DNA of 64,000 nt from positions 184,263 through 248,262 of the forward strand of contig CAWAVV010000011.1 of the NCBI GenBank assembly GCA_963785565.1, written 5' to 3'. Below the pieces are notes generated by a model, which worked only from the letters and a program-made list of their open reading frames with translations, was not told where the DNA came from and made no database searches. This DNA is from an uncultured Alphaproteobacteria bacterium (GTDB lineage: Bacteria; Pseudomonadota; Alphaproteobacteria; ATCC43930; CGMCC-115725). How positions within the stretch are numbered: the first letter of the stretch is position 1; the number at the start of each line of letters is the position of its first letter. Positions 5,258 through 54,414 of the stretch are shown here, one piece after another. The position numbers and the translations under genes are program-made.

Positions 5258-5875
5258 TTACGCCGAGAGCACGTCGTCGATCTCCTTCGCCCGCAACGCG
5301 GCCGGCCGCGCGCTGAGCCGCTGACAATACCGTTCGAAAGCCAGCCGCTTCTCGATCACGCCGAACTGCATGCCAAAGCCAATTCCGGAGCCGAGATAGG
5401 TATCGGCGGCCGTGAAACTGTCGCCGACCACATATTCGGCACGCGACACCGCCGCTTCGAGTGTGTCGACGACCGCTTCGAAGCGTCCATAACCGGCCAT
5501 CCTTTCCCTTCGGGCGGCACGACAAAGCCCATGGCCCTGTTAGTCCATGCGGCTTCGAGCGGGCAGGCGCCGAAGAAGAGCCAGCGATAATTGGGGCCGC
5601 GCCGACGATCACCTGGTGGCGGGGTCAGGCGAGCCTCCGGAAACGCGTCGGCGAGATAAGCGCAGATCGCTGCCGCTTCGGTCACCACGGTGTCGCCGTG
5701 TCGTATCGCCGGCACCTTCCCCATGGGAATTGACGGCGAGGTAAGCCGGCGCCTTCATCGTGGTGCCGTATTCGAGCAGCTCCGTTCGATAGGGCTGGCC
5801 GATTTCCTCCAGCATCCAGCGCACGATCCGGCCGCGCGACATCGGATGGGTGTAAAAAACGAGTTCGTCCGCCAT
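5258..5875 (-). pseudogene. Glutathione S-transferase family gene with two frameshifts
   Basis: Three frames must be joined to read the protein. They are MADELVFYTHPMSRGRIVRWMLEEIGQPYRTELLEYGTTMKAPAYLAVN, then (P)MGKVPAIRHGDTVVTEAAAICAYLADAFPEARL…LFFGACPLEAAWTNRAMGFVVPPEGK, then MAGYGRFEAVVDTLEAAVSRAEYVVGDSFTAADTYLGSGIGFGMQFGVIEKR…. The lesions are near 5724 (an apparent extra T in aatTccc) and near 5500. Confidence 0.8.
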
Positions 5876-6114
5876 TTGCGATTTCCCCGCTCAGCGGTTC
5901 CAACGATACCGCTCTTTAACTCCGCTTGCGGGTTCCGCTGAAGCCTCCGGGGCGCGGCTGCTGCCCCAAGGCGGATCTTCGGTGTTTCAACGACAGAGTG
6001 GTGTAAGCATTTGCTGGATTCGGTCAATCGATCCTATAGATCGGCAGATCGGCGAGAATGGTCTTCAAAAGCCGGCCTGGCTTCTTCGCGCAATCTGCGT
6101 AGGGAGGACGCGCG

Positions 6115-28341: not shown

Positions 28342-28992
28342 TTACGTCACCAGCATGAGCAGGCGCAGGCGCGGCGCGGCGGTGGATCGCGATGACCCAA
28401 TGCGGCTGACGATGATGGCGTCGAGGCCGAGGGCGCGGCCATAACGATGCACGGCAAAGTTCAGCATCAGCACCAGCAGAAAGAAATAGGTCCACGGCCA
28501 TTCGCCGGGCGCCCAGTACAGCCCGAGCCACAGATTGAGGATCTGCAATGCCCCGATCACACCCCACAACCGGACAAACAGCCCGAGGATCAAGGATACT
28601 CCGGTCAGGACTTCGGCAGCATAGACTATCGGCGCGAACAAATAAAAGTGGGGCAATACGATATTGTTGACGAAATCGGACTGCAACGGGACCGCGGCAT
28701 ACTTGCCCATCACCCCCATCCAATAGGCGAGCCCGGTCGCGCCGAACGGCTTATCCGGATGGTCTGTGTAATAAGGCGGCAGCTTCCATAGGCTCTGCTG
28801 CCACCACAACGCGCCGATGAAAAAGCGAGCGGCCCAGCCGAATAAATTCGTCGCGGTGCGCTGGGCGGGGATCGTGCGCCAGACGTAAGCGGCGATGATG
28901 ACGCTGCCGATGATCAGCAGCCAAAAAACGACCGTCGTCCAGCCGGGCTGGGTCAGGAAACTGACGACATCGGAGATCGGGTTGGGTCTCAT
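28342..28992 (-). CDS. DoxX/DoxD-like polytopic membrane protein (last gene of the operon)
   Basis: The internal start MRPNPISDVVSFLTQPGWTTVVFWLLIIG has its ATG overlapping the stop of the upstream GT2 gene. There are several TM segments. Confidence 0.6.
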   Translation of the reverse strand: MRPNPISDVVSFLTQPGWTTVVFWLLIIGSVIIAAYVWRTIPAQRTATNLFGWAARFFIGALWWQQSLWKLPPYYTDHPDKPFGATGLAYWMGVMGKYAAVPLQSDFVNNIVLPHFYLFAPIVYAAEVLTGVSLILGLFVRLWGVIGALQILNLWLGLYWAPGEWPWTYFFLLVLMLNFAVHRYGRALGLDAIIVSRIGSSRSTAAPRLRLLMLVT

Positions 28993-29690
28993 CACCGCCG
29001 TCCTTCGCAGGCAATCCGGGTCAGCGTAGCGCCGATCCGAAGACTCGCCCTGATCGTTCCCGACAGGCTGCCGGAAACCTTCGACACGCCACCAGCGCGG
29101 CGGCGATGATCTACCGGGATTTCGAGGATGCGCAAACCCGTGCGGGCCGCCCGCATCTGCATTTCCAGATTCCAGCCATATGTCATCTCGCGCATGCCCA
29201 GCCGCACCAATGCTTCGCGGCGGATCGCGCGAAACGGGCCCATGTCGGTGTAGGCGACGCCATAAAGCAGGCGCAGCGCAAAGCCGATGGCATACCCGGC
29301 GATGATCTGATGTGCGCTCATGCTGCCCCGTTCGCGGCGGCCGCGGGTGCGCGAGCCGATGACGAAATCGTACCCGCCCGCGAGCATCGGTGCGAGCAAT
29401 GCCGGGATCACTTCCGGCCGATCGCTGCCGTCGCCGTCGAGAAACACCAGGATGTCGCAGTCGTCCGCGGCCTCGGCGCCGGCGCGGCACGCCCGGCCGT
29501 AGCCGCGGCGGCTCTCGGTGACGATCCGAGCCCCACCAGCACGGGCCCGCTCGACCGTGCGATCAGCGCTGCCGCTGTCGGCGACGATGAGCTGATCGAC
29601 GACATCGCGGGGGACCGCTGCGAGAACCCCGCCGATCGCCTCCTCTTCGTTGAGGGTCGGGATGATCAGCGCGACTCGCGGCCGCGCCAT
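28992..29690 (-). CDS. Family-2 glycosyltransferase (polyprenyl-phosphate sugar transferase-like)
   Basis: VALIIPTLNEEEAI…LIVADSGSADRT…ILVFLDGDGSD…FRAIRREAL is the classic GT2 DxD architecture. Confidence 0.8.
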   Translation of the reverse strand: MARPRVALIIPTLNEEEAIGGVLAAVPRDVVDQLIVADSGSADRTVERARAGGARIVTESRRGYGRACRAGAEAADDCDILVFLDGDGSDRPEVIPALLAPMLAGGYDFVIGSRTRGRRERGSMSAHQIIAGYAIGFALRLLYGVAYTDMGPFRAIRREALVRLGMREMTYGWNLEMQMRAARTGLRILEIPVDHRRRAGGVSKVSGSLSGTIRASLRIGATLTRIACEGRR

Positions 29691-29691
29691 G

Positions 29692-30761
29692 TCACAAGCT
29701 CCAGCGCAGTCCGCAACCGGCGCAGGCAGGCGAGGGCTTGTCGCTCAACAACGCGCTGCGGAATGCCTGGTAGCGCTCGCCGTTCCAGATCTCGCGAAGG
29801 CTTTGCTGGGTCGCGTCACCGAGCGTGAAGCCGTCATAGCCACGCATCGAAAACGGGGCGATGCAGCAAGGAATCGCGCGGCCATGGGCGGTGAAATACA
29901 TCAATGTCCAGGGCCGCCGGCACAGGGACCAGGGTTGCCGGTTTTCCGCCTGCTTCAGGCTGGAGGAAGGATCGGTGGCGCCCGAGGCGTTGAAACTGAT
30001 CCCGAGCTGCCGCGCCAATGCTTCGGCCTGGCGAACCAGCCGGCCCTCCTCGCCATCGTCACCTTCGAACAGGGCCGACTGCGCGCGCGCCAATCCTTGC
30101 CCTTCGGCAAAATAAACGAGCCGTTGGAGATAAACCTCGGGAATGCCGAGGTCGTGGGCCAAGCGTGACGAAATCGTCCAGCTGATCGATCGTCTCTTTG
30201 AGGCCGGTCAGCCACAGCGACAGCGCGTGGCTGAGCCGCGCCGATCTCCTGTTGCAATGCGCGGAAGGCGCGGATGTTGCGCACGATCCGGGCAAACATA
30301 TCCCGCCCGCGCACCAGTTCGAACGCCTTGGGCTCGGCGGCATCGAGCGACAGGCGCAATTCGTCGAGCCCGGCCTCGATCAGCTCGCGCCCCTTGCGCT
30401 GGGTCAACAGGGTGCCGTTGGTGTTGAACAAGACATAGGTGCCGCGATCCTTCAGATAGCGGACCATGCGCGGCAGCGCGGGCACCATCATCGGTTCGCC
30501 GACCCCGTGCAGAACGACGCGGGCGATCTTCGGGAACTGGTCGACGATTTTGGTGAATAAATCCCAGCTCATGTCGCCGGGCGGCTCCAGCGCTTCGAAG
30601 GTGCGCGGGCAGGTCGTGCACAACAGATTGCAGCGGTTGGTGGTTTCGAGATAGAGGCAGACCGGCTCGATTTCGGCGATCGGGCCGCGCTCGTCGGCGA
30701 TATGGTCGAAATAGCGTCTGCGGATCGGGGGCGGGCGTGGTGCTAAAAGGGTGTCGGACAT
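29692..30761 (-). pseudogene. Radical SAM / SPASM-domain enzyme with two single-nucleotide frameshifts
   Basis: Frame 1 reads MSDTLL…LYLETTNRCNLLCTTCPR (CxxxCxxC)…RAFRALQQEIGAAQP. Frame 2 reads ALSLWLTGLKETIDQLDDFVTL. Frame 3 reads AHDLGIPEVYLQRLVYF…CRRPWTLMYFTAHGRAIPCCIAPF…ACAGCGL (SPASM cysteines). The lesions are near 30225 and near 30160 (an apparent extra G in cttGgcc). Confidence 0.8.
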
Positions 30762-30763
30762 GC

Positions 30764-32080
30764 TCAACAACTCCGGGCTGTGGCTTGCCGACGACGCCAG
30801 ATATCGACCATCGCCAGGACGGTAAACGGCACGTAAATCGCCGCTTCTATCGGCAGCCGGTAACCTTCTCGCGCGAGGGGCGACCCGACTTGAACGAGGT
30901 AGAGCAAAAGGGTCGCGTTGGTCAACCACAGCAGCGATAAATAGGGGGCGAAACAGACAAAGATAATCAGCCAAGCAAAATACCAAGGATAGTGGGGCGA
31001 CAGCAGAAACATGAATGTGCTCGCCAATAACGCGGCGCCGGCGAGAAGGTCGGCGCGAGGATCGTGGGCAAAGGCTATGGCGGCGGCGAGCGCAGTGAGA
31101 ATTGTCGCGGCGCCGGCGATATAAAAGAGCGTCGGCAGCCCAGTGAATGGCGGGAAGGTCTGCAACGCATTCCATAAAAAGAAGCCCGTACCGTTCGCCG
31201 TAAAGCCTTCCTCTCTGGCATATCCCGGCAAGAAGCCCAAGACCTCCCAGCCGGCGCCGATAAAGGGCAGATAGCCGAGGATCAACGCAGCCACAAAGGC
31301 GATCGGCATCCGCGGCCACTCCCAACGACGGTACACAGCCGGCAGCAGTATCGCCGGGTAGAGTTTTACCAGGGTGGCGCCGGCGAGCGCGAGCCCGGCG
31401 AACCATGCCCGGTCTTGTCGCCGGGCCCACAAGGCCAGCACGACAAAGGCGATCAGAGCGGCGTCGATATGGCCGCTGCCGGCAAATTCCCAGATCGGCA
31501 GCGGGTGCCAAGCGTAAACGAGGATGTGCCCAGACGGCAGGCCGGCGGCCTTCAGCAACCGCAACAGAGCGGCGATGGTAATGGCTTCGAAGAAGACCAT
31601 CGCCGCTTTCATCGCGACCAGCGACTGGCTGATCCGGGTAACGACGAAGAAAATCGCCTCCGCCACCGGGGGATAGATCGTCGGCGCGTAAGTGCTGCGG
31701 TTGATGCGCGGGAAGATCTGCGAGTCGCGCAACCGGTCAAGGTGCGGGTCGACCGGGATGTACCGATAGGGGTTGATGCCGGCACCCTCAACCCGCCCAT
31801 CCCAGACATAGCGATAGATGTCATTCGAAAGATAGGGTGGCGCACAAAGGACTAGCAGGCGCGACAGCGCGGCCACCGCAAGGATCACCACCAGCGCCCG
31901 CCAGGACGTCCGCCGATTCCAGACGAGCCCGACCGACAGCAGATAGACGGCGGCTTGTACCAAAGCGACCATGACAAAGCCGTCGATGTCGTCGCGCTTT
32001 TGCTGATAAAGGCCGACCGCGGTGAGGCCGAGAAGTGCTGCCGCGCAAGCCAGCAACGATAGCAGGCGGCACCCGGTCAC
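30764..32080 (-). CDS. Polytopic membrane glycosyltransferase-like protein (GT-C fold, DUF2029/GT87-like)
   Basis: 438 aa with more than 10 TM segments. The loop motif is PPYLSNDIYRYVWDGRVEGAGINPYRYIP. The GTG start overlaps the upstream stop (GTGA). Confidence 0.6.
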   Translation of the reverse strand: MTGCRLLSLLACAAALLGLTAVGLYQQKRDDIDGFVMVALVQAAVYLLSVGLVWNRRTSWRALVVILAVAALSRLLVLCAPPYLSNDIYRYVWDGRVEGAGINPYRYIPVDPHLDRLRDSQIFPRINRSTYAPTIYPPVAEAIFFVVTRISQSLVAMKAAMVFFEAITIAALLRLLKAAGLPSGHILVYAWHPLPIWEFAGSGHIDAALIAFVVLALWARRQDRAWFAGLALAGATLVKLYPAILLPAVYRRWEWPRMPIAFVAALILGYLPFIGAGWEVLGFLPGYAREEGFTANGTGFFLWNALQTFPPFTGLPTLFYIAGAATILTALAAAIAFAHDPRADLLAGAALLASTFMFLLSPHYPWYFAWLIIFVCFAPYLSLLWLTNATLLLYLVQVGSPLAREGYRLPIEAAIYVPFTVLAMVDIWRRRQATARSC

Positions 32081-32872
32081 AGTCGCCGACCGCCGATCCC
32101 GGCTATCGGCGAGCCAAGACCAATCCGCCGGTCCCCGCCAGTGCCGAGCAGGTGCCGCAGAAATCGGGCGGTATGCGGCGCCTCGAACCGCGTTCGCTGA
32201 TTTTCTTCGATGGGACTGCCGAGCAGCTCTTCAGTCAGACGGCGCAGCGACGCCAAATCGTCGACGTCGTACCACATCGGCAGGACCGCAGTGTCGAGGC
32301 CGATTTCGTGAGCCCGTTCGAGGGTTTGCGCCAAGACTTGTTCGGTGCTCCAGGCGATATCCTCGAACAGACGGGCATGCGGGCTTTTCAGGCCGATGCA
32401 ATAGTAGCCGCCATCCTCGGCCGGGCCGAGCACGACCCGATCTCCCGGCGCCAGCAATGTCTGAGCAGCCTCGATCAAGACCGAGGTCGGCAAGGTCGGG
32501 CTGTCCGAGTTGACAAGACAGACCGACCCGTAACCGGCGGCGAGCAAATCTTCGGCCGCATCGGCGAGACTGTAGCCGAGGCCGACCCGCCGCGACGGCA
32601 ACAGCCGGATCGCGCTCCGGCAGCAAAGCGCGAAACACCGGCTCGGATTCTGGTGGCGAATATGCAACATGGCCGTGGATCGGGGCCGATTGCGCCGCAG
32701 CCATGATGTTGTCGGCGGTGTCGCGGATAAAACAACTGCTCAAAGCCGCCGCCTCCGTCTCCGATAAGGGCGGAGCCAGCCGCGTCTTGGCGTCGCCGAT
32801 CCGTGGCGCCTTGGCCATCATAGCCACGGCGCAGAATTTGCCGAGATCGGTTCTCGGCAGGCCTTCGCTCAT
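32077..32872 (-). pseudogene. DUF2064-like (TIGR04282-type) nucleotidyl/glycosyl-transferase with one frameshift
   Basis: The N-terminal frame reads MSEGLPRTDLGKFCAVAMMAKAPRIGDAKTRLAPPLSETEAAALSSCFIRDT…FRALLPER. The C-terminal frame reads IRLLPSRRVGLGYSLADAAEDLLAAGYGSVCLVNSDSPTLP…GPAEDGGYYCIGL. The shift is near 32610. Confidence 0.7.
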
Positions 32873-33690
32873 CGCGGCGGGCCGGCAATGCTGCGCCAAG
32901 CCCGCGCCGCGGCGGCGATCACCGCCAAGGAAGCCTTGGCCCCGTCGGCTTCGCCCTTTTCGAAATCGCCTGCGACCACGGCCATCCGGTTCGTCACATG
33001 CGCGAAGCACAGAACCGGCTTCCCGCGCGCCCGGGCGAAAGCGTAGAGCGCCGCCGCTTCCATCTCGACAGCCAGGATATTTTGGGCACGGCACCTTTCG
33101 ATCGCGCCGGAGGTCTCGCGAAATGGCGCATCAGTCGTCCACGAGGCGCCGCGGTAGACCGGTTCGGCCAGGTCCGAAAGGACGCCGAAAGCGCTGCCGG
33201 CCAGCGCGGCGTCCACCTCGGCAAATTCTGCCGGCGGCAAGTAATGGTAGCTCGTACCTTCATCGCGAAGGGCGCGATCGATCAGCACGAAATAGGGGGT
33301 TGGCCCGCGGGCGACGATCTGACCGGCCGAGGTCATGCTGATCAGCAGGCAGCAGCCGGAGACGAAGAGCTGTTCCGCGAGCAGCACCGCAAACGGGGCG
33401 CCGACCGCACAGCCGATAATGCCGAAACGCTCGGGGCCGTAGTCGAACTCGTAGAGATCGGTGTGGTAGCACGCCCAGCCTGGGGAACGCCGCGCCTCCC
33501 CGGCTCGGCGCAGCCCGCGCAGAATGTCACCGTCGGGGTCGAGGATGCAGATTTCAGGGACATCCGCGGCCGCCAGCCCCTTCTGGCGCCGCGCCTCGCG
33601 CAACAGGTTGGCCGGCTCGAAGACCGATGCCGCCGCAAAATCCTTGCCCGCCAGTATCGGCGGCACGGACGCGCGGCCGGCGTCGTTCAT
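32869..33690 (-). CDS. PNP_UDP_1-family nucleoside phosphorylase/nucleosidase-like protein (first gene of the operon)
   Basis: The internal start MNDAGRASVPPILAGK is at 33690. …GIIGCAVGAPFAVLLAEQL…LISMTSAGQI…ILAVEMEAAALYAFARARG is phosphorylase-like. An ATGA overlap links it to the next gene. Confidence 0.7.
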   Translation of the reverse strand: MNDAGRASVPPILAGKDFAAASVFEPANLLREARRQKGLAAADVPEICILDPDGDILRGLRRAGEARRSPGWACYHTDLYEFDYGPERFGIIGCAVGAPFAVLLAEQLFVSGCCLLISMTSAGQIVARGPTPYFVLIDRALRDEGTSYHYLPPAEFAEVDAALAGSAFGVLSDLAEPVYRGASWTTDAPFRETSGAIERCRAQNILAVEMEAAALYAFARARGKPVLCFAHVTNRMAVVAGDFEKGEADGAKASLAVIAAAARAWRSIAGPPR

Positions 33691-33838
33691 GTTTCCCTTG
33701 CTGGCCACAGTATCGGGACCGGTCAAGACCGCAGGATTTGCAGGGGCGATGGGCGAGGGTCCACGGACGCGCATGGTCGCAGAAATAGCGGGTATAACCT
33801 TAGCCACAGAGTTCAATTTCCTGTGAGAGGAAACCGCC

Positions 33839-35251: not shown

Positions 35252-36307
35252 TCACGGCTTGCGGAACGGGCTGACGATCGGCCGAGCTTCCGCATCGCCG
35301 CGGGCGAGCGGCGCCAGCCCGTAGAAATCCTCGATCGTCCGCAGGACGGAAAAATGGTCGATCCGGTCCTCGTATCGGCCCGGCGCGACCCCCTGCCCCG
35401 CCATCACCGTCGGTATCAGGTTGATGTAGCGCTTGGCGACGCGCGCGCCCGTGGCGTCGGTGACCGGGGTATAATCGTCCTCGTCTTCATCCCAGGTGAT
35501 GATCAGCAGGCTGTTGTGCGTCATCGCCCAGTGGCGGTAGGGCTCGATGTGGGCGCGCAGCCAGGCGTCCATCGCGAGACCGTAATTGGTCCCGGATGGA
35601 GCGGCCGATGATCCGTGCGCATCGTTGATCTGATTGGGTACGACGAAGGCGACCGTCGGCAACCGGGCAAAACCCGCTTCGTCGGCGGGAAAGGCGGTAA
35701 ACGGCAGATTTACCGTGGAGGGCAGCTGGTTGCGGCCGATGGCGGCGTCGCTCGCCGCCTGCCAATTGACCCATGGATTGTGCTTGCGCTGATAGTCGAT
35801 GCCGCTTCCCGCTGGGCCGGTGTGCGAGATGCCGGTGAAGCCGGGATAAGGGAGATCCTCGGCATATCCGGCAAAGCTGTGGCCGGCGCGGATCAGCGCC
35901 GCCCCGAGATTGGGCGTGTCGAGAGGAGTGTCGGCCGGCGGGTCGTCGGTGCCGACCTGGGTATGACCGCCGACGATCGGGTTGGAGCCGTCGGGATTGC
36001 GTTTTGCCTGCGACCCGGTGCCTTGCGCGTCGCCCGAGAACAGCGCCAGGTAATTGGGCTGCGAGGGGTGGTCGATGGCGTGCGAATTGGTGAAGTTCGC
36101 GTTGTCGCGCATCAGACCGGTCAAATAGGTCAGTTCCGGGACGAGATTGCGCGGCGAGAGATTTTCTTCGATGACGATGACCACATGGTCCGGCGTCCAT
36201 ACCGCGGCCACAGCCGGCCATGCGGCGAACAGGACGAGCGCGCCCAACCCGCCGGCGATGGCGCGCCATGCTTGCCGGCAAAGTTCCATCCGGCTACAAC
36301 CCTTCAT
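35252..36307 (-). CDS. Secreted phosphoesterase-family protein (acid phosphatase/phospholipase-C-like)
   Basis: A signal peptide is followed by HVVIVIEENLSPRNL…NANFTNSHAIDHPSQPNYLALFSGDAQG…INDAHG. An alternative start (MELCRQ) is at 36289. Confidence 0.8.
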   Translation of the reverse strand: MKGCSRMELCRQAWRAIAGGLGALVLFAAWPAVAAVWTPDHVVIVIEENLSPRNLVPELTYLTGLMRDNANFTNSHAIDHPSQPNYLALFSGDAQGTGSQAKRNPDGSNPIVGGHTQVGTDDPPADTPLDTPNLGAALIRAGHSFAGYAEDLPYPGFTGISHTGPAGSGIDYQRKHNPWVNWQAASDAAIGRNQLPSTVNLPFTAFPADEAGFARLPTVAFVVPNQINDAHGSSAAPSGTNYGLAMDAWLRAHIEPYRHWAMTHNSLLIITWDEDEDDYTPVTDATGARVAKRYINLIPTVMAGQGVAPGRYEDRIDHFSVLRTIEDFYGLAPLARGDAEARPIVSPFRKP

Positions 36308-36610
36308 TGAGAAGCGAAAAAAGCTGGCTGCTTCTGCAGCAAATCAGCAGCGCGAAATCGTGCTCTGGTTGTAACCCCGCCTGACACAGCCGTCCCACCA
36401 GATTGCCCAAATCTCGGCAACGGCCACCCGCCCGCTTTGCGGCTTTTGCTGTTATTATGCAGCGAAATATCAGCTGTCCTTCGCTTCGTCCCGGATACAA
36501 CCTTGCCGCCTATTATCCGGCCGCATCGATGGCAAAAGCATATGATGAGGATCATGGCAATTTTGACAGTCGCCGGTTCTGCTGAGAGGCAGCATTATCG
36601 CCCCTTCGCG
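35994..36610. repeat. Segmental duplication, copy A (phosphoesterase 5' part plus its upstream region)
   Basis: It aligns by eye with 37346-37758 plus 38577-38815 at high identity. Example: ggtaattgggctgcgaggggtggtcgatggcgtgcgaattggtgaagttcgc is present in both. Confidence 0.85.
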
Positions 36611-36680
36611 CATCTTTACTTGATAATCCGGTCGTTGCCACTTACTAACCCACCAAAATACACGAGGGAGGATCAAGGTC

Positions 36681-37064
36681 ATGAGCGGTGTGACGGACCA
36701 ACGAGAGGTGGCTGCCTGGTGCGGCGCCGTCCGATTTATCGCTACTAGTCAACCGAAAGGCGTGTATTGGTGTCATTGTGAAAGCTGCCGTAAGCATAGC
36801 GGCGCACCCGCATCGGTTTTTGTCGCGTTCGAACGAACGGCATATAGGGTCACGCGGGGCGAGATAACGAAATTCAATTCGACGCCGGGGCGAACCCGGC
36901 GCGGGTTCTGTGGCCGGTGCGGATCAACACTGACCTGCGAAAGCGCGAGCTTGCCGACTGAAACACATTTCGATATCGGCGCGTTTGATCGCGCGGCCGA
37001 GCTTAAGCCCACACGGCACGTATTTCGTGACGAACACCTGCCGTGGTTCCACATAGCGGCGTGA
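36681..37064 (+). CDS. GFA-family (glutathione-dependent formaldehyde-activating / CENP-V-like) protein
   Basis: CGAVRF…WCHCESCRKHSGAP…GFCGRCGSTL are zinc-binding cysteines. GGGAGGA lies upstream. Confidence 0.8.
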   Translation: MSGVTDQREVAAWCGAVRFIATSQPKGVYWCHCESCRKHSGAPASVFVAFERTAYRVTRGEITKFNSTPGRTRRGFCGRCGSTLTCESASLPTETHFDIGAFDRAAELKPTRHVFRDEHLPWFHIAA

Positions 37065-37344
37065 GCGCGCGATCTGCAAACAGGTCGCGGGCTCGCAATT
37101 CCGACGCCGGGAATTTGCTATTTAGATTTGCGAGCCAGGTGTAGGGCGGAACAGCGCAGCGCTATTCCGCCTCCACCAGTCCCGCCCGGGGCCCTTGCCC
37201 GGACTGTCGTAGCGTCGACGAGTGAGCAGCAAATGCGAAGGGCTCGCGGGTGAAAGGTCAACGCCGCGGCGATAAAGATCGTCGAAGAAGACACGGCGCC
37301 GGTAAACAAGGCGGAAGGCGCTGCGCTGTTGAGCCTACAGTGGC

Positions 37345-37691
37345 TGGATTGCGTTTTGACTCCGACCCGGTGCCTTGCGTATCGTCGGAGAACAGCGCCA
37401 GGTAATTGGGCTGCGAGGGGTGGTCGATGGCGTGCGAATTGGTGAAGTTCGCATTGTCGCGCATCAGACCGGTCAAATAGGTCAGTTCCGGGACGAGATT
37501 GCGCGGCGAGAGATTTTCTTCGATGACGATGACCACATGATCCGGCGTCCATACCGCGGCAGTCGCAGGCATGCGGCGACTAGGACGAGCGCGCCCAACC
37601 CGGCGGCGATGGCGCATGCTTGGCGGCAAAGTTCCACCTGTTCCCGAAACGGTGCCCAATGGGTCGATGAGGCATCCGCGCAACCTTTCAT
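37345..37691 (-). pseudogene. Truncated, frameshifted duplicate of the phosphoesterase gene (N-terminal ~110 aa only)
   Basis: AAVWTPDHVVIVIEENLSPRNLVPELTYLTGLMRDNANFTNSHAIDHPSQPNYLALFSDDTQGTGS nearly matches 35252..36307. The signal-peptide part (MKGC…ELCRQACAIAAGLGALVLVAA) is in another frame and has an extra ~36 nt. Confidence 0.85.
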
Positions 37692-38815
37692 TGAGGAGAT
37701 GAAAACAGCTGGCTGCTCCTGCAGCAAATCAGCAGCAAAAGACCTGTTTTGGTTGCAGTCTGCGCCAAACCCTAGCCGCTACACCCACCACAGCGTGCTC
37801 ATCCGCCACAATGTTCCGACGCCCCATTGCTTACGATAATTGCAACCATCCTGTTCTGCGCCTCTGCCTTTTCATCGGCAGTGGATGTAAATGGTAGGTG
37901 CTCACCGGTCCAGTGCAATTGCACCCGGTTCTCCGGCACCTTGTTGGCATAGACAAGAGCCTCGAATACCGCTTCGGCGCGTCGTTGGGATAGGTGCGCA
38001 TTAAAATCCGCAGAGCCAACCGAATCCGTCTTGCCAACGATCGTGGCGACGAAGATTGGGGTGCTTTGCAGCAATGCGGCCACGTCGCGTATGTGGTTTC
38101 GGTCTTCGGGCGTCAACGCGTGACTGCTCGTGGAAAAATAAACAAAATGGGTCGTACACGTCGGTGGCGGATTCTGCGTCTGCTGTGCTGTCGCAGCATG
38201 AGCTGCAAAAAGGCCCATAACCGCCGCAGCTGCAAGGCTCTTCGTTACTATGCTTCTTGACATTGGCTCCCCCCTTTTCGGATTTGACCGGGATGGCCCA
38301 TATAGCCGTCGATCCCCAGCCTTCTTGTCTAACCGTAGCCTTCGCCCAAGGCTCTTTCCAGCGATTTTGTTGGCGAGCGCCCCGCCGACGCCTTTACTTG
38401 GTGCAGCGATGGACGGAGTGTCGCGCCTTCTGGTCCGTGACGCTGGATTTCGACACACCTCTCCCACCGGAAGACGAGCAGGTCAGCCGAGCGGGCATCC
38501 TCGACATCGGGCCGGCGTCGATCGACGGCATCCCGGCTTTCGCGCACCAGGCCAGGAAATCCCGCATTGGTTGCAGCCCCCGCCTGATCCGCAGCCGTCC
38601 GACCGGATGCCCAAATCCCGGCAATGGCCACCCGCCCGCTTCGCTGCTTTTGCTGTTATTTGCAGCGAAATATCAGCGATCGTTGGTTTCGTCCCGGTCA
38701 ACCCTGCCGCCCATTACCTGGTCAGACCGAGGCAAAGGCATATCATGCGATCATGGCAATTTTGTCGTCGCCAGTTATGCCGGCAAGGCGCATTAGCGCC
38801 CATTCGGCCGTTGAG
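37346..38815. repeat. Segmental duplication, copy B, interrupted by an 818-bp insertion (37759-38576)
   Basis: The left part (37346-37758) and right part (38577-38815) are contiguous in copy A. TTGGTTGCAG occurs at 37749-37758 and again at 38567-38576. Confidence 0.8.
37799..38263 (-). CDS. OmpA-like (peptidoglycan-binding C-terminal domain) secreted protein
   Basis: The start MSRSIVTKSLAAAAVMGLFAAHAATAQ has GGGGGAG upstream. …VATIVGKTDSVGSADFNAHLSQRRAEAVFEALV…NRMVAIIV is an OmpA_C-like motif. Confidence 0.7.
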   Translation of the reverse strand: MSRSIVTKSLAAAAVMGLFAAHAATAQQTQNPPPTCTTHFVYFSTSSHALTPEDRNHIRDVAALLQSTPIFVATIVGKTDSVGSADFNAHLSQRRAEAVFEALVYANKVPENRVQLHWTGEHLPFTSTADEKAEAQNRMVAIIVSNGASEHCGG

Positions 38816-38839
38816 CGAAAAAATCTGCACCGTCAGCGC

Positions 38840-39781
38840 TCATCCGCGCTCGACATAGCGTGACGCCGGAGACGCGGCGAATTTAGCCTCGATCATTGCT
38901 ATAAATGCTGGTGCAATTTTTTTCCCAAGACTGCCTAGCCCTTCGACAGAGCTCCGTAAGGAGTCGTCCAGTACTATCCACTCCCCTTGCCAGTGCTCGT
39001 TAAAGCACATCTTCTCTGTTTGTAGGAATGGGAGCGCCCGCAGGATCATCCAAGCAATTTCGGTAAATCGGTTCATGTATATTGCAAATCCATCGTCGTC
39101 CATCCGCGGACCGACTGCGAATTCCTTTTTGTCTTGTATCCATGCGTATAGCTCACGCATGGTGCTCAGTCGAGCACCATGCACCTGCATATTGAATACC
39201 CTGTTCCAGCGCTTTAAAGCCTCGATATGCTCGGCGTCAAGCCCTGAGTTTTTGCCAATCATCCGCTCGAAAATGAGCCTTTCTTCATCCTGACGGTGAT
39301 ACAAGACAGCTTTGTGGTCTTTTTCACCCCATGAGGCCGAGGCTGGTGGCTCCTTGAGGCCATAGAGGGCGGGAAAGGACGAAATACCCTCCACTACGGC
39401 GCCGAGGAAAATTGCCTGATCCTTGAGGTTACGCTGTAACGCGTATCCGTCGAGAGGATAACCATTCACTGACAAAACCTCGGCGGCCCGCATACCTCGG
39501 AAATGAGTGACAAATTCTACAAGACATGGACCATAATACGAATGTCCCGGCCAGCCGGTCTTGTAGTGGCCGGCAGCTGCTGAGCGAAGCGTCACAGCGA
39601 AAAAATCCATAAAACTATCGGCAAGGACGCGGTGGCCGTGGAACTTATCTACGAAGTAGGCTCCACAAATTTGCTCTTGCTTCATTGTGGAAGGTAATAT
39701 ACGTCCACCCACCACGCCGTTATAGGTAAAATGGTCTTCGAGGTTTCTCTGCCATTGCGCAACGTTCGTGCCCATTATCAT
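38840..39781 (-). CDS. Hypothetical protein (313 aa), orphan, in the low-G+C islet
   Basis: This is a long ORF in AT-richer DNA and looks predicted-helical. I recognise no family confidently. A vague DUF5677-like impression is not supported. Confidence 0.5.
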   Translation of the reverse strand: MIMGTNVAQWQRNLEDHFTYNGVVGGRILPSTMKQEQICGAYFVDKFHGHRVLADSFMDFFAVTLRSAAAGHYKTGWPGHSYYGPCLVEFVTHFRGMRAAEVLSVNGYPLDGYALQRNLKDQAIFLGAVVEGISSFPALYGLKEPPASASWGEKDHKAVLYHRQDEERLIFERMIGKNSGLDAEHIEALKRWNRVFNMQVHGARLSTMRELYAWIQDKKEFAVGPRMDDDGFAIYMNRFTEIAWMILRALPFLQTEKMCFNEHWQGEWIVLDDSLRSSVEGLGSLGKKIAPAFIAMIEAKFAASPASRYVERG

Positions 39782-40076
39782 TCTTTCGTCAAAAATCCCC
39801 GACGGTACAATAACTACTGAATTAAATTACGATCGGCTCGATCTCTTTGGGCGTCATCGGCCGGCGATCGCAGAGTTGCGTCGTGCGTTTCGAGGTATGG
39901 TTTGCAATGGCAGCGGCTTTTCAAGGGTGCAACGGTTGATGAGATAGGTTATGATCCCGTTCGTTCAAGCCCAACAACAAGCAGCGGGGACGGCGTCGGG
40001 TTATGAACCTCCACGCAATTCGATCGCGTCGTGCGCAGTATGTGGCCACCCTCGGGGCTCGATCGCGAGCTACTTG

Positions 40077-40199
40077 CCGCATTCCACGCGCGGAATCTTC
40101 ATCACCAGAGCGATCAAGAACGGCGCCCGGCTCGAGATTAGCGGAAAGCCGCTGGATACCACAATTTGGAGAAGGCCGCAGCTTTTTGCGGCCTATTAG
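40077..40199 (+). pseudogene. Tyrosine recombinase (phage-type integrase), C-terminal remnant
   Basis: PHSTRGIFITRAIKNGARLEISGKPLDTTIWRRPQLFAAY* resembles the integrase tail H..R.tfiT.al.nGa.LE.vq..aGH.d..TTklYdrR…FFATY, but with internal loss. No upstream catalytic region is present. Confidence 0.45.
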
Positions 40200-40216
40200 T
40201 GAGGTTAGACCTTGCC

Positions 40217-40657
40217 GTGATTGACTGGAACGCGGTTCTTCCCAGGGAATGGTCGAGGATCCTTCCTTGGATCGGGGTTTCCGCAGCTGCTCTGATAGGG
40301 GCAGGCTGGGCGTTATTTTCATTCGGCTACTCGCGCGGGAAGGATGTCGCACAAGATCAGTTGGCCTATTACGAAAACACCACTGCGGCCAAGTTGCCAG
40401 AAGTCGGGGCGAATTTGCTGAAGATTTCTAACGATTTGCGTGATGGATTGCGCGTATATGAAGAAAATAAGACTCTTCGTACCAAAGTGAGATCATATCA
40501 AGATCAGATAGCCGAGGCCACAAAACATAGCGCCACGCTAGATGTTATAATCACTGATCTTCGTAAAAAAACAGCAGAGGATACGATGAAGCAGGGAGAA
40601 CTACGGGACCAAATACATGCGTTAACTGGAGATCTCACGAACGTTTTATCTGAGTAA
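40217..40657 (+). CDS. Membrane-anchored coiled-coil protein, hypothetical
   Basis: A TM segment (ILPWIGVSAAALIGAGWALFSF) is followed by heptad-like sequence (…RVYEENKTLRTKVRSYQDQIAEATKHSATLDVIITDLRKK…). I prefer the GTG start at 40217 because the 40166 extension overlaps the integrase remnant. Confidence 0.45.
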   Translation: MIDWNAVLPREWSRILPWIGVSAAALIGAGWALFSFGYSRGKDVAQDQLAYYENTTAAKLPEVGANLLKISNDLRDGLRVYEENKTLRTKVRSYQDQIAEATKHSATLDVIITDLRKKTAEDTMKQGELRDQIHALTGDLTNVLSE

Positions 40658-40672
40658 ATCGACAGCTGAAAT

Positions 40673-40702
40673 GCTTATAAATGGCATAAGCGTAGGATTT
40701 TT
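40673..40702 (+). terminator. Possible rho-independent terminator
   Basis: GCTTATaaatggcATAAGC is followed by gtaggaTTTTT, 16 nt after the stop at 40657. The stem is weak (6 bp, AT-rich). Confidence 0.35.
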
Positions 40703-40998
40703 GGCGATTATGGATCAGATAGGGTCATAATTATTTTTGACAATAGGGAATACCAAGATGGTCCAGGATATAGATTTATTATCAGTGATGATAACAGAAA
40801 ATGCTTACTCACCATATTGTCGTTTGACTCTCCATCATTTGCAGAGAAGGTGAAGTTTCAATTTTCTTGTGCTCCGAAATAAAAACTAACGTCTGTCCGG
40901 ACGGCTCGCCTCGGACCCAAAAGGCTGTGATGACCGAGAGGACGCAGCCCGGTCGGGGACGGCACTGCCGCTGCCGAGCTGATCGCCAACGGGCTGGT

Positions 40999-41420
40999 TC
41001 ATGAAGAACCTGCCCTCGCCGCACGGTGGGCATCGACAATGCGGAGGAGATGATTTGCCAACATAATGATCTCGGCCGCCTCATCGGGATCATCCAAGGC
41101 GACGTGCCGGTGGGATTGAGGGTTTTTGTAGGAGCCGATTGCGCGCCAGCAAAAAGTTCCATCCTCGCGACCTGCTCCCCACCCTCGGCGTTGGCGTCGG
41201 TTAAAGGCCCAGCATTTGGCGACGGTGAGAACGCTGCTCGCATCAACTTCACCCCCAACAGGCTGTCTGACATCTCCCCTGCTTCACGTACTGCCACCTC
41301 GACCGCTTTCATTGCCTCGAAAACTGCCGTGTCGTATTTCCCTTGATGATAGAGCGACCACACATCCTCACGGATGCTCGCATGCAGTGTTTCTTTGGGG
41401 ATGCGCCGGGCGGAAAACAT
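40999..41420 (-). pseudogene. TIGR02391-like (Hypoth_ymh) family protein, frameshifted
   Basis: Frame 1 reads [48 protein letters not shown]…[14 protein letters not shown]. Frame 2 reads [47 protein letters not shown]. The shift is near 41140 and looks like a missing nucleotide. Confidence 0.6.
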
Positions 41421-41428
41421 TTCGCGCG

Positions 41429-41770
41429 TCAGGTTCGGCTGCTATCTCCTTTGCCCGGCGGCTCCATCCGGATCGCGTTTGGCGATTGCCACGAGGGATG
41501 CTCGATCAGGAGCCCCGCTCCTTCCAACCAAGCCCATGCTTCCCGGATTGCCTGTGCAGCTCGGTCACCGTCCTTTATCGGGTACTGGCTAGGTAGGACG
41601 GGGCCACTGTCGATGACGGCCGCACGTGGTACAAAACTATGTGCGGTCAGAGGGTCATGCTGCAGTGGCGGCCAGGTAGCTAAAGCAGGCAGCATCCGCA
41701 GGCCCAGCTCGTCCGGTTCCAGGGCGCAAAGAACGTCAGCCTCGGGTATCAGCTCGATCAGTGAAACCAT
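41429..41770 (-). CDS. Hypothetical protein (113 aa), upstream partner of the TIGR02391-like gene
   Basis: The ORF reads MVSLIELIPEADVLCALEPDELGLRMLPALATWPP…AIREAWAWLEGAGLLIEHPSW. I cannot assign a family. Confidence 0.4.
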   Translation of the reverse strand: MVSLIELIPEADVLCALEPDELGLRMLPALATWPPLQHDPLTAHSFVPRAAVIDSGPVLPSQYPIKDGDRAAQAIREAWAWLEGAGLLIEHPSWQSPNAIRMEPPGKGDSSRT

Positions 41771-41928
41771 AGGACGATTTTACCGCAGATTAAATATCAG
41801 ATAAAGGACATTATTCACACATGATCTCCACCGAAACGCGAGCTGTGTCGCTGAGGTCCGCCGCGGGCGCTGGCGGCGGGGGAAGGGTCGGTCTAGAGTC
41901 CGCCTCCGGCGTTAGGAGGAGGGGTCGC

Positions 41929-43648
41929 ATGTATGATCTGGTGATCCGCGGGGCGACGGTGGTCGACGGGCTCGGGCATGAGCCGCGGCGGGCCGATGTC
42001 GCGGTCGAGAACGGGCGGATCGCCGGGATCGGCGAGGTCGGCCGCACCGCCGAGCGGGTCGTCGACGCCGGCGGGCTGACCCTGATGCCGGGCATCATCG
42101 ACATCCACACCCATTACGACGCGCAGGTGACCTGGGACCCGACCTTGTCGCCGTCGCCCTCGCTCGGCGTCACCACCGCGGTCATGGGGAATTGCGGCTT
42201 TGGCATCGTCCCGAGCCCGCCCGATCTGCGCGATCTGATCATGCGCAACCTCGCGGTCGTCGAGGGCATGGACATCGAAGCATTGCGCGCCGGCATCAAT
42301 TGGGAATTCGAGAGCTTTGCCGAATATCTGGCTGCGGTCCGGCGGCGCGCGCCTTATGCCAACCTCGCGGTGTTTGTCGGCCATTCGGCGGTGCGCACCG
42401 CGGTCATGGGCGAGGACGCCTCGGTCCGCAAACAGCCGACCTCCGGCCGAACTCGGCGAGATGAAGCGGCTGGTGGCCGAGGCGATGAGCCAGGGGGCGG
42501 TCGGGCTCGGCGCCTCCTATTCGCTGAACCATTCCGGCTGGGGCGGCGTGCCGATGCCGTCGACGATCAGCGAATTGGGCGAATTCGACGCGCTGGTCGG
42601 CGCGATGGGCGCGCGGGGCAAGGGCGTGGTCGAGATCTCCTCCGGGCAGCATAGCGTCGCCGAGATGGAGGAGATCGCCGGGCGCCACGGAAGACGCATC
42701 TTCATGGGCACGGCATTGGCGCTCTACAACGAGCAATACCCGCGCCGCGCGATCGAGATGTTCGACGCCTGCTCGGCCGCACAGGCGCGCGGCAACGGCG
42801 TGCACATCCAGCTGACCTGCCAGCCATTGTCGTTCGATTTCACCCTGGCGAGCGCCTATCCCTTTTACAGCCACGAAGCCTTCGAGCCGATCAAGGCGTT
42901 CTCGCCCGAGCAGCTCAAGGCGGTGTTCCGCGATCCCGGCTTCCGCGAGCGGTTCCGGCAGAATTTGGCGCAGCCGCGGCCGGGAACGGTGTTCCAGGGC
43001 AATTGGAACCGGGTCGTCGTCGCGGCGCCGGTAATGCGCAAGAATGCCGGGCTCGCCAACCGCAACATCGCCGACATCGCCCGCGAGCGAGGCGGCGACC
43101 CGCTCGACGTGATGCTCGATCTCGGCCTCGAAGAGGATCTGCAGACCGCGTTTCTCGGCCTGTTCTTCAATGCCGTCGACGAGGGTGTGGCCGAATTGCT
43201 GAAGCATCCGGCCGGGGTCGTGGCGTTGTCCGATGCCGGCGCGCATCTGATGTATCTGTGCGACGCCGGGTTCGGGCTTTACCTGCTCGGGCATTGGGTG
43301 CGCGAGCGCGGGCTGTTCGACCTGCCCGAGGGCGTGCGCCGGCTGACCAGCCATCAGGCCGGGCTTTACGGCATTCCCGATCGCGGCCGGATCGAGACCG
43401 GCGCCTTTGCCGACCTGTTGCTGTTCGACCCGGACAATGTCGGGGTGTCGCCGGCGCGCCGCATCAACGATTTGCCGGGCGGCGGCCCGCGCACGATCCG
43501 CGACCCGAAGGGGGTCCACGGCGTCTTTGTCAACGGCATCGAGGTGTTCGACGGCAAAGACTATCGCCCGATCGCCAAGGGGCCGGGGCAGGTGCTCGAC
43601 CGCTTTCTGCCGAGCGGGCCGGGTCTGGTCCGCAGCGCGGCAGAGTAA
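41929..43648 (+). pseudogene. N-acyl-D-amino-acid deacylase (D-aminoacylase) family amidohydrolase with one frameshift
   Basis: Frame 1 reads MYDLVIRGATVVDGLGHEPRRADVAVENGRIAGIG…MPGIIDIHTHYD…MGEDASVRKQPT. Frame 2 reads PAELGEMKRLVAEAMSQGAVGLG…LSDAGAHL…. There is an apparent extra T at about 42441 (gaccTccgg). Confidence 0.85.
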
Positions 43649-52688: not shown

Positions 52689-52704
52689 AATTTGGACTAG
52701 AGCG

Positions 52705-54414
<1,710 letters not shown>

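Follow-up and report, generated by a model that had tools for sequence, protein, structure and literature searches.

Positions 28342-33690 of the minus strand, within a 64-kb stretch of a contig from an uncultured alphaproteobacterium (the whole stretch being called the window below), carry six genes built around a conserved and uncharacterized four-gene cassette. The core genes specify, in order, a DUF2064 protein, a membrane glycosyltransferase of family GT87, a radical SAM (S-adenosylmethionine) enzyme and a short glycosyltransferase of family 2 (GT2); a gene of the PNP_UDP_1 family of nucleoside phosphorylases and nucleosidases (PNP) precedes them, and a DoxX-like gene follows. The most likely role of the cassette is to make an unusual lipid-linked sugar and to place this on the cell envelope, and we tentatively regard it as a widespread system for lipid-carrier-dependent cell-envelope glycosylation, the chemical steps of which are drawn from what is known of the protein families. 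A first-pass annotation of the sequence had suggested an envelope glycolipid or a polyprenyl-linked glycoconjugate; a glycoconjugate of the envelope for which the donor is polyprenyl-linked fits best, as the GT2 protein resembles AglJ, dolichyl-phosphate (Dol-P)-hexose transferases, DPMS and ArnC, GT87 is a GT-C family, and the two occur as a natural GT87::GT2 fusion.

Conservation and gene fusions

A scan of one genome per species returned 195 relatives of the radical SAM protein, the best 80 loci of which were examined; gene order was counted in the 64 that lie on enough contig. The DUF2064, GT87, radical SAM and GT2 genes are colinear in 56 of these 64 loci, and all six genes are colinear in 18. 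A PNP gene is present in 33 of the 80 loci (immediately upstream of DUF2064 in 27) and a DoxX gene in 45 (immediately downstream of GT2 in 30). Co-conservation, which the first-pass annotation had proposed to test for the six-gene set, thus holds for the four-gene core, while PNP and DoxX are facultative. The PrpD-family, phosphoesterase and AMP-binding genes were considered as further members and rejected, because they flank the cassette in its closest relatives only.

The hosts are mainly Stellaceae and other Alphaproteobacteria. Further copies, whose radical SAM proteins are 70-77% identical to that of the window, come from Steroidobacteraceae, Acidobacteriota, Verrucomicrobiia, Thiohalocapsa, Burkholderiales and delta/Myxococcota metagenome-assembled genomes (MAGs); across phyla the identity of this protein, among the best 80 of the 195 relatives, is 70-100%. 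The cassette is also carried on plasmids of the cultured species Methylobacterium aquaticum (in strain MA-22A as Maq22A_RS31880-31895) and M. radiotolerans. A word-indexed search yielded 7,993 homologue clusters (at 90% identity), and an exhaustive search 480 representative proteins at E <= 1e-30.

In more distant loci the same four functions occur in a different order, and some are joined in pairs. DUF2064::radical SAM fusions of approximately 545 aa, with DUF2064 at the N-terminus, make up more than 50 clusters, and GT2::radical SAM fusions of 561-562 aa have the GT2 domain N-terminal; representatives of both types are 37-48% identical. A plasmid of Miltoncostaea oceani encodes a 651-aa protein annotated as "GT2" that is a GT87::GT2 fusion, 32% and 48% identical to the two proteins of the window, next to DUF2064 and a radical SAM gene 44% identical to that of the window. 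The order in a Myxococcota MAG is GT87, GT2 (484 aa), GT2 (224 aa) and DUF2064::radical SAM. In another metagenome a GT2::radical SAM gene lies near a DUF2064 gene and one for a DUF2079 membrane protein, which takes the usual place of GT87; we take DUF2079 to be GT-C-like. The independent fusions, which join them in pairs, speak for a single pathway on which the four proteins act. The co-inheritance of the genes and their fusions identify the cassette as a real and conserved unit.

Two further observations concern these loci. The 90% cluster that holds the GT87 protein also includes 264-aa DUF2064 proteins (P0018, P0025 and P0030 with P0016), which suggests that some contig has a fused or mis-called open reading frame (ORF) across the 4-nt overlap of the two genes. 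Proteins with cytochrome c or CarboxypepD_reg domains are found beside the cassette in the two distant fusion-type loci (L084 11485-15697 and L086 9759-12029), and L084 has a Rieske/cytochrome b set as well. They might be acceptors, or simply neighbors.

Glycosyltransferases

The GT2 protein matches Pfam Glycos_transf_2 with 76 bits. Its NCBIfam matches all fall below the respective cut-offs: AglJ (114 against 325 bits), Dol-P-hexose transferase (66 against 375), PpgS (46 against 370) and ArnC (28 against 529). Matches in the PDB span the whole domain, namely archaeal DPMS (5mlz, residues 5-208) and ArnC (9hwj/9bhc, 5-206), and the DXD motif is conserved as FxDGDGxD. The protein appears most similar to the polyprenyl-phosphate sugar synthases (AglJ, Dol-P-hexose, DPMS and ArnC), a resemblance at the level of the family.

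The polytopic product of the preceding core gene matches the Pfam GT87 model (PF09594) with 43.9 bits, above the cut-off of 25, and has some 11-12 hydrophobic segments. Its Methylobacterium orthologue is named "glycosyltransferase 87 family protein" in RefSeq; an orthologue also matches PF26314 (MptA_B_family). Invariant motifs after the third hydrophobic segment are S85-x-D87, R90-Y91-x-W93-D94-G95 and HPLxxWE, the first two of which would form the acidic motif of a predicted first extracytoplasmic loop, as expected of GT87. The GT87 members known to be characterized use polyprenyl-phosphate-mannose donors. The adjacent DPM-type GT2 and the natural GT87::GT2 fusion point, indirectly, to a polyprenyl-phosphate sugar as the donor here.

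The DUF2064 protein

With one base removed, as described below, the DUF2064 gene encodes a protein that scores 89.5 bits against Pfam DUF2064 and 156.2 bits against TIGR04282 (cut-off 134). It matches the CofC model over its full length (E 1.8e-7) and PDB entry 3CGX (E 6e-17). Three motifs are conserved, KAPxxGxxKTRL, DSPTxP and DGGYY, the first of which is typical of nucleotidyltransferases; we regard the protein as a putative member of that class.

The NCBI name of TIGR04282 is "arsenosugar biosynthesis glycosyltransferase," which raises the question of whether the cassette is an arsenosugar (organoarsenical) biosynthesis cluster. RefSeq gives this name to the DUF2064 orthologue of Methylobacterium aquaticum, and the window's protein passes the model; the model itself, however, is graded only as a "hypothetical equivalog." The partners expected of such a cluster differ: ArsS (TIGR04167) is not among the best 25 of the 45 matches of the radical SAM protein, the GT2 protein fails TIGR04283 (48.5 bits, cut-off 182), and a GT-C transferase does not belong to the arsenosugar set. 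Among the annotated ORFs of the window there is no arsM or ars resistance gene, although no search was aimed at these. Of the explanations considered for the cassette, we rate this one the least probable. Literature on DUF2064, TIGR04282, DUF2029 with radical SAM proteins, and arsenosugar glycosyltransferases offered nothing useful on the cassette.

The radical SAM enzyme

The radical SAM protein matches both the Radical_SAM and the SPASM models of Pfam. Its conserved cysteines are C43/C47/C50 and C279-x17-C297(C298)-x46-C345-x2-C348, each present in at least 99% of 80 sequences. The protein had been described as SPASM-type, a designation that we abandon, since just five C-terminal cysteines (C279, C297, C298, C345 and C348) are conserved instead of the seven of the SPASM motif. 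By its CX3CX2C motif and the BtrN-like "twitch" spacing of the other cysteines it is an enzyme with one auxiliary cluster, the binding of clusters being predicted. BtrN is its best sequence match in the PDB (core i-Evalue 6e-5). The C-terminal segment aligns to BtrN with 9.5 bits (i-Evalue approximately 5, not significant alone), and C279 and C297 fall on two BtrN cysteines, presumably the cluster ligands C169 and C188. Because its single auxiliary cluster is like that of BtrN, which modifies carbohydrates or cyclitols, we surmise that the enzyme tailors a sugar.

An AlphaFold model of the protein gave Foldseek matches to DesII, SuiB, SkfB, MoaA, PqqE, BlsE and anSME; DesII, BlsE and MoaA are among its neighbors in sequence and fold, alongside peptide maturases. 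The structural comparison that the first-pass annotation had recommended thus finds fold relatives, but sugar enzymes and peptide maturases are mixed among them, so that the model does not discriminate between substrates.

A different role would be that of a maturase, acting on a protein or metallocofactor (for example that of a neighboring MsrP/YedY-like molybdoenzyme) or on a ribosomally synthesized and post-translationally modified peptide (RiPP), with the transferases glycosylating the product. In NCBIfam the protein is indeed most similar to "tungsten cofactor oxidoreductase radical SAM maturase," with 147 bits, and "putative metalloenzyme maturase," with 126 bits, but these scores are far below the cut-offs of 380 and 400. 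In Methylobacterium, and in about 9 of the 80 loci, cytochrome b and molybdenum oxidoreductase genes immediately precede the cassette, while most loci are devoid of such an oxidoreductase. SuiB, SkfB and anSME are among the fold neighbors; SPASM maturases of peptides and proteins, however, have seven or eight cysteines where this enzyme has five, with a single auxiliary cluster, and the operon contains neither a cognate substrate gene nor a precursor ORF, nor space for one. Fusions to DUF2064 or GT2 elsewhere, moreover, tie the radical SAM domain to sugar-handling enzymes. We consider maturation very unlikely.

Accessory genes and neighboring modules

The PNP protein matches PF01048 (PNP_UDP_1) with 88.8 bits, and its best relatives of solved structure are DeoD PNP, uridine phosphorylase and the 5'-methylthioadenosine (MTA) phosphorylase of Sulfolobus. 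A serine is found at the position aligned to the phosphate-binding Arg87 (E. coli PNP numbering); either a phosphorylase or a hydrolase is therefore possible. Members of the same subfamily (73-77% identical) occur without the cassette at L094 7001-7822 and L096 5568-6500, divergent from a methyltransferase gene and a GST_N_2-type glutathione S-transferase (GST) gene. The subfamily may be a general-purpose enzyme that was recruited to the operon.

The pairing of radical SAM and PNP_UDP_1 genes in 33 of the 80 loci recalls the adenosylation route that the first-pass annotation had in mind, in which the radical SAM enzyme would add the 5'-deoxyadenosyl group of SAM (compare ArsS, HpnH and MqnE), PNP would remove the adenine, and the resulting 5-substituted ribose would be activated by DUF2064 and pass to GT2 and GT87. 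DUF2064 passes TIGR04282, a model named after a system centered on ArsS, which adenosylates, and the trio of radical SAM, DUF2064 and GT2 parallels ArsS, TIGR04282 and TIGR04283. However, the radical SAM enzyme is related to ArsS, HpnH and MqnE at the superfamily level only, and none of these is among the best 25 of its 45 NCBIfam matches. It also has an invariant twitch-like set of auxiliary cysteines, while we know of no adenosylating radical SAM enzyme described so far with a twitch or SPASM auxiliary cluster; and most loci have no PNP, which moreover is not confined to the cassette. On balance, we find this route unlikely.

The last gene of the operon is a borderline member of its family, with 23.2 bits for DoxD (cut-off 22.7), 21.0 for DoxX (23.6) and 20 for TQO DoxD (300). 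In 14 other loci the DoxX gene stands beside a second radical SAM gene instead of after GT2, and in L025, L032, L059, L078 and L081 DoxX homologues adjoin another radical SAM/SPASM gene (cluster 45). A pairing of DoxX with radical SAM genes thus recurs in several arrangements.

Two other modules are found next to the cassette. One, often its neighbor and seen in L034, L037, L058, L061, L062, L065, L066, L071, L079 and L091 (4078-13277), has three genes of the M. tuberculosis Rv1679/Rv1680/Rv1681 families, which specify a FadE16-like acyl-CoA dehydrogenase, an SBP-like protein and a radical SAM protein whose N-terminal extension is TusA-like in appearance; we know of no function for this module. 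In Miltoncostaea it is interleaved with the cassette in one array, together with DoxX. The other is a cytochrome b and molybdopterin-oxidoreductase pair resembling MsrQ/MsrP (YedZ/YedY), which abuts the cassette at L088 5026-6967 and L089 5070-6969 and likewise at L043, L044, L046, L056, L060, L064, L072, L080 and L083. In Methylobacterium a small secreted protein is encoded between this pair and the cassette, apparently in one operon, and a pyridoxal phosphate-dependent aminotransferase gene follows GT2.

Proposed function

In the envelope-glycosylation pathway that we favor, DUF2064, with its CofC/MobA-like GT-A fold, would activate a sugar phosphate, possibly supplied by PNP, with a nucleotide. 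The radical SAM enzyme would tailor the sugar by oxidation, epimerization or deoxygenation at the nucleotide-linked or the lipid-linked stage. The GT2 protein, of the DPM1/AglJ/ArnC type, would then move the sugar onto polyprenyl phosphate at the cytoplasmic face of the membrane, and after flipping, GT87 would pass it to an acceptor in the envelope (lipopolysaccharide, glycolipid or glycan) at the periplasmic face.

Several points weigh against this scheme. All the steps are assigned from the likeness of the proteins to known families. The GT2 protein passes no curated equivalog cut-off and is devoid of membrane helices; searches with the GT87 sequence by itself and with a profile of 28 sequences matched no solved structure; and no recognizable flippase is encoded in the cassette. 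More than half of the loci have no PNP, and members of its subfamily are also found at a distance from the cassette, beside GST and methyltransferase genes, perhaps in a housekeeping role. The AlphaFold model of the radical SAM enzyme has a pLDDT of 66 with a weak C-terminal domain, and its fold neighbors include peptide maturases besides the sugar enzymes. The likeness to mycobacterial methylthioxylose (MTX) synthesis, considered in the last section, is drawn from functional descriptions and not from the Rv0535-Rv0541c sequences.

More speculatively, the sugar might be a nucleoside-derived pentose-1-phosphate, released from MTA, 5'-deoxyadenosine or adenosine by the PNP-family enzyme or a housekeeping equivalent. 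This would follow the logic proposed for the MTX cap that mycobacteria put on their lipoarabinomannan, the radical SAM enzyme standing in for the epimerase. DoxX could be an accessory membrane partner that serves as an electron sink, as an anchor or as a link to a neighboring sulfur-related module. Taken further, the cassette might turn a by-product of SAM metabolism (MTA, or the 5'-deoxyadenosine that radical SAM enzymes release) into a pentofuranose of the 5-thio or 5-deoxy kind. Tailored by an epimerase or oxidoreductase of the radical SAM type, this would be displayed on the envelope of diverse Gram-negative soil bacteria, while the neighboring MsrPQ-like reductases, DoxX proteins and sulfur-related Rv1679-Rv1681-type modules would service the redox state of the thio-sugar. 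This extension is doubtful; if true, it would represent a non-actinobacterial counterpart of the mycobacterial MTX cap that employs radical chemistry.

The four-gene core is abundant, and its radical SAM protein, found mostly in uncultured soil bacteria, is unusually conserved (70-90% identity across phyla). For two domains of the core, DUF2064/TIGR04282 and the radical SAM subfamily, no function is known from experiment. If a reaction could be assigned, thousands of genes would gain an annotation and the role of the "arsenosugar" DUF2064/GT2 pair would become clearer; an envelope sugar and a radical SAM reaction on carbohydrates, both new, might also come to light in Gram-negative bacteria. 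The occurrence of the cassette on plasmids of cultured Methylobacterium makes the question directly testable.

Gene organization

The positions of the six minus-strand genes (Table 1) agree with those of the first-pass annotation, as do the junctions between them. These are ATGA at 32869-32872, GTGA at 32077-32080, a 2-nt gap between genes 3 and 4 (the stop ends at 30764 and the ATG is at 30761), a 1-nt gap at 29692/29690 and a 1-nt overlap at 28992 (TGATG). The family assignments were likewise corroborated by Pfam and NCBIfam: PNP_UDP_1, DUF2064, GT87, Radical_SAM plus SPASM and Glycos_transf_2, with DoxD/DoxX borderline.

Table 1. Features of the operon and its upstream region (positions in the window).
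Feature	Position	Strand	Remarks
Gene 1, PNP_UDP_1-family nucleoside phosphorylase/nucleosidase	32869..33690	-	273 aa; accessory; PF01048
Gene 2, DUF2064/TIGR04282 protein, GT-A-fold, CofC-like, putative nucleotidyltransferase	32077..32872	-	core; one 1-nt insertion
Gene 3, GT87-family GT-C polytopic membrane glycosyltransferase	30764..32080	-	438 aa; core; Pfam GT87
Gene 4, radical SAM enzyme with twitch-like C-terminal domain	29692..30761	-	~354 aa when repaired; core; two 1-nt insertions
Gene 5, short GT2 of polyprenyl-phosphate sugar synthase type	28992..29690	-	232 aa; no transmembrane segment; core
Gene 6, DoxX/DoxD-like small membrane protein	28342..28992	-	216 aa; 4-5 hydrophobic segments; accessory
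Frameshift site 1, DUF2064 gene	32609..32613	-	1-nt insertion relative to L004-L007
Frameshift site 2, radical SAM gene	30220..30224	-	1-nt insertion relative to four relatives
Frameshift site 3, radical SAM gene	30161..30165	-	1-nt insertion relative to four relatives
Divergent intergenic region, gene 1/PrpD-family gene	33691..33838	.	148 nt; presumed promoter region

A GGAG/AAGGA-type ribosome-binding site precedes four of the six starts and is unclear before those of DUF2064 and GT87; the ATG of gene 1 is preceded by AAGGGA. A divergent promoter shared with the PrpD-family gene had been proposed; in the 148 nt that separate this gene from gene 1 no match of sigma-70 type is seen, and across the region sites resembling promoters or terminators are not in excess of shuffled expectation. 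The earlier statement that no precursor peptide is encoded stands, there being no room for one: no gap between genes exceeds 2 nt, and a credible small ORF is likewise missing from the 148-nt leader. A repeat scan of the operon gave chance-level matches only.

Frameshifts: sequencing error or decay

Three single-base frameshifts had been noted and were placed in three genes. Alignment with four relatives bears out the number, while the genes affected are two, with one break in DUF2064 and two in the radical SAM gene; each is private to the window among these relatives. Removal of one base at site 1 restores a 264-aa DUF2064 protein, and intact DUF2064 orthologues of this length are present in relatives. 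The relative with 92% DNA identity has six intact genes (273, 264, 437, 354, 232 and 214 aa) with the same flanks.

It had been proposed that the system may be decaying in this strain, which would make the operon a cluster of pseudogenes inactivated not long ago. Of the five frameshifts found over the 64 kb, three do fall within 2.5 kb of the operon, and these breaks lie outside homopolymers. The relatives, however, show the same kind of damage at different places. L005 and L006 each carry three different private indels in the operon and further ones in the flanking phosphoesterase gene, and L007 carries one in PrpD. Those sister genomes that are labelled MFD are, by their record titles, MAGs of Microflora Danica, a project whose assemblies are Nanopore-only and were polished with one round of Medaka (PMC12313526). 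A GST-like gene (identified by its translation) at 5261-5890 of the minus strand is also broken twice, running in frame 0, then 1, then 0, so that frameshifts are not confined to the operon. Apart from the indels, the repaired DUF2064 and radical SAM genes have no premature stop or other lesion, and their dN/dS values of 0.33 and 0.13, respectively, indicate purifying selection, as in the intact neighbors (0.10-0.19).

Because of the indels in the sister MAGs, the broken GST gene and the purifying selection seen after repair, we read the three frameshifts as consensus or assembly errors of a long-read metagenome, which they very probably are, the sequencing platform of the window being taken from that of its nearest relatives. 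The copy of the operon in the window is ordinary and probably intact, and the suggestion of decay is not supported; real frameshifts in an inactivated cluster are improbable. Four other same-strand ORF pairs in the window were examined as frameshift candidates and rejected as separate genes. Selenocysteine read-through was also rejected as an explanation of the breaks, since the frame changes, there is no in-frame TGA, and the relatives read straight through. At 30720-30750 (minus strand) insertions of 2 nt and 1 nt, 27 nt apart, give the radical SAM protein other residues at ~4-13 than in any of the four relatives, yet keep the frame; these may represent either real N-terminal variation or further sequence errors.

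Other features of the window

The region from ~36300 to 42000 has a lower GC content than its surroundings (58% against 64-67%). At 37258-37683 (minus strand) the 5' end of the phosphoesterase gene (35252-36307) is present a second time, in truncated form, and a segment reading MPKSRQ.PPARFAAFAV near 36403 is found again near 38600. The island looks like an insertion that duplicated its flank. At 52857-53146 (minus strand) a full-length match to Rfam 5_ureB_sRNA (100 bits) lies antisense within a 574-aa ORF (52690-54411, plus strand). This ORF may, from the name of the Rfam family, be a urease subunit gene, and the match is likely driven by the coding sequence.

Comparison with known systems

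The earlier remark that no characterized pathway has this set of genes is upheld, inasmuch as the hypothetical TIGR04282 is the only curated NCBIfam equivalog that passes and no matching literature was found. The hopanoid (HpnH/HpnG/HpnI) and futalosine (MqnB/MqnE) routes, with which the operon had been compared, likewise pair a radical SAM enzyme with a PNP_UDP_1 nucleosidase, joined in the hopanoid case by a GT2. The cassette differs from both in its radical SAM subfamily and in having no cyclase or menaquinone genes nearby. No Hpn or Mqn model of NCBIfam is found for PNP or GT2 (E <= 0.01) or among the best 25 of the 45 matches of the radical SAM protein, and all the matches listed for these proteins lie far below the cut-offs of their models. 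Membership in either pathway is thus discarded, while the idea that nucleoside cleavage yields the sugar remains plausible in the light of the Burkholderia operons described below.

The radical SAM enzyme shares with BtrN the CX3CX2C motif, a single auxiliary cluster with the pattern C-x17/18-C ... C-x2-C, and the want of a peptide substrate; it differs in its modest sequence similarity and in being about 100 residues longer. SpeY, HygY and AprD4 are further twitch radical SAM enzymes that act on small molecules.

The closest analogues of the cassette would be the predicted "arsenosugar" DUF2064/GT2 cassette and the MTX capping system of mycobacteria. The former (ArsS TIGR04167, TIGR04282 and TIGR04283) also brings together a TIGR04282-type DUF2064 protein, a GT2 and a radical SAM enzyme. 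Our cassette differs in that ArsS is not among the best 25 of the 45 radical SAM matches, its GT2 is AglJ/DPM-like, a GT-C transferase is added, and arsenic genes were not noticed. In Burkholderia glumae and B. thailandensis, plasmids bear an operon that joins an MTA phosphorylase with a TIGR04283 GT2, a TIGR04282 DUF2064 protein and an FAD oxidoreductase; it follows the same scheme with a different redox or tailoring enzyme and no GT-C protein.

In M. tuberculosis, MtxS (Rv0539) makes decaprenyl-phosphate-MTX and MtxT (Rv0541c) transfers MTX to lipoarabinomannan (PMC8780516, PMC12088412). The parallel lies in a short GT2 that loads an unusual pentose onto polyprenyl phosphate and an integral-membrane transferase that delivers it to an envelope glycan (PMC8780516, PMC12088412). 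The MTX system is tailored by an NAD-dependent epimerase, where the cassette has a twitch radical SAM enzyme; the cassette is further set apart by its DeoD/UP-like PNP subfamily, its mostly Gram-negative soil hosts and the added DoxX. A model attributed to Angala et al. in 2017 reportedly runs from MTA to methylthioribose (MTR)-1-phosphate, by way of a PNP-family MTA phosphorylase, then to a nucleotide-sugar, C-3 epimerization and a lipid-linked donor. This order of phosphorolysis, nucleotide-sugar formation and tailoring would be that of the cassette as well.

ArnC/ArnD/ArnT, GtrA/GtrB/GtrC, Ppm1/PimE and DprE1-E2 with Emb/Aft are three-part lipid-carrier systems, in which a GT2 loads polyprenyl phosphate and a GT-C enzyme transfers the sugar outside the membrane. 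The cassette departs from these in its radical-chemistry tailoring, its extra DUF2064 step and the absence of a recognizable flippase (GtrA or ArnE/F). In such systems tailoring may take place on the lipid-linked sugar, as it might in the cassette, which by analogy would belong among the lipid-carrier glycosylation systems as an uncharacterized form.

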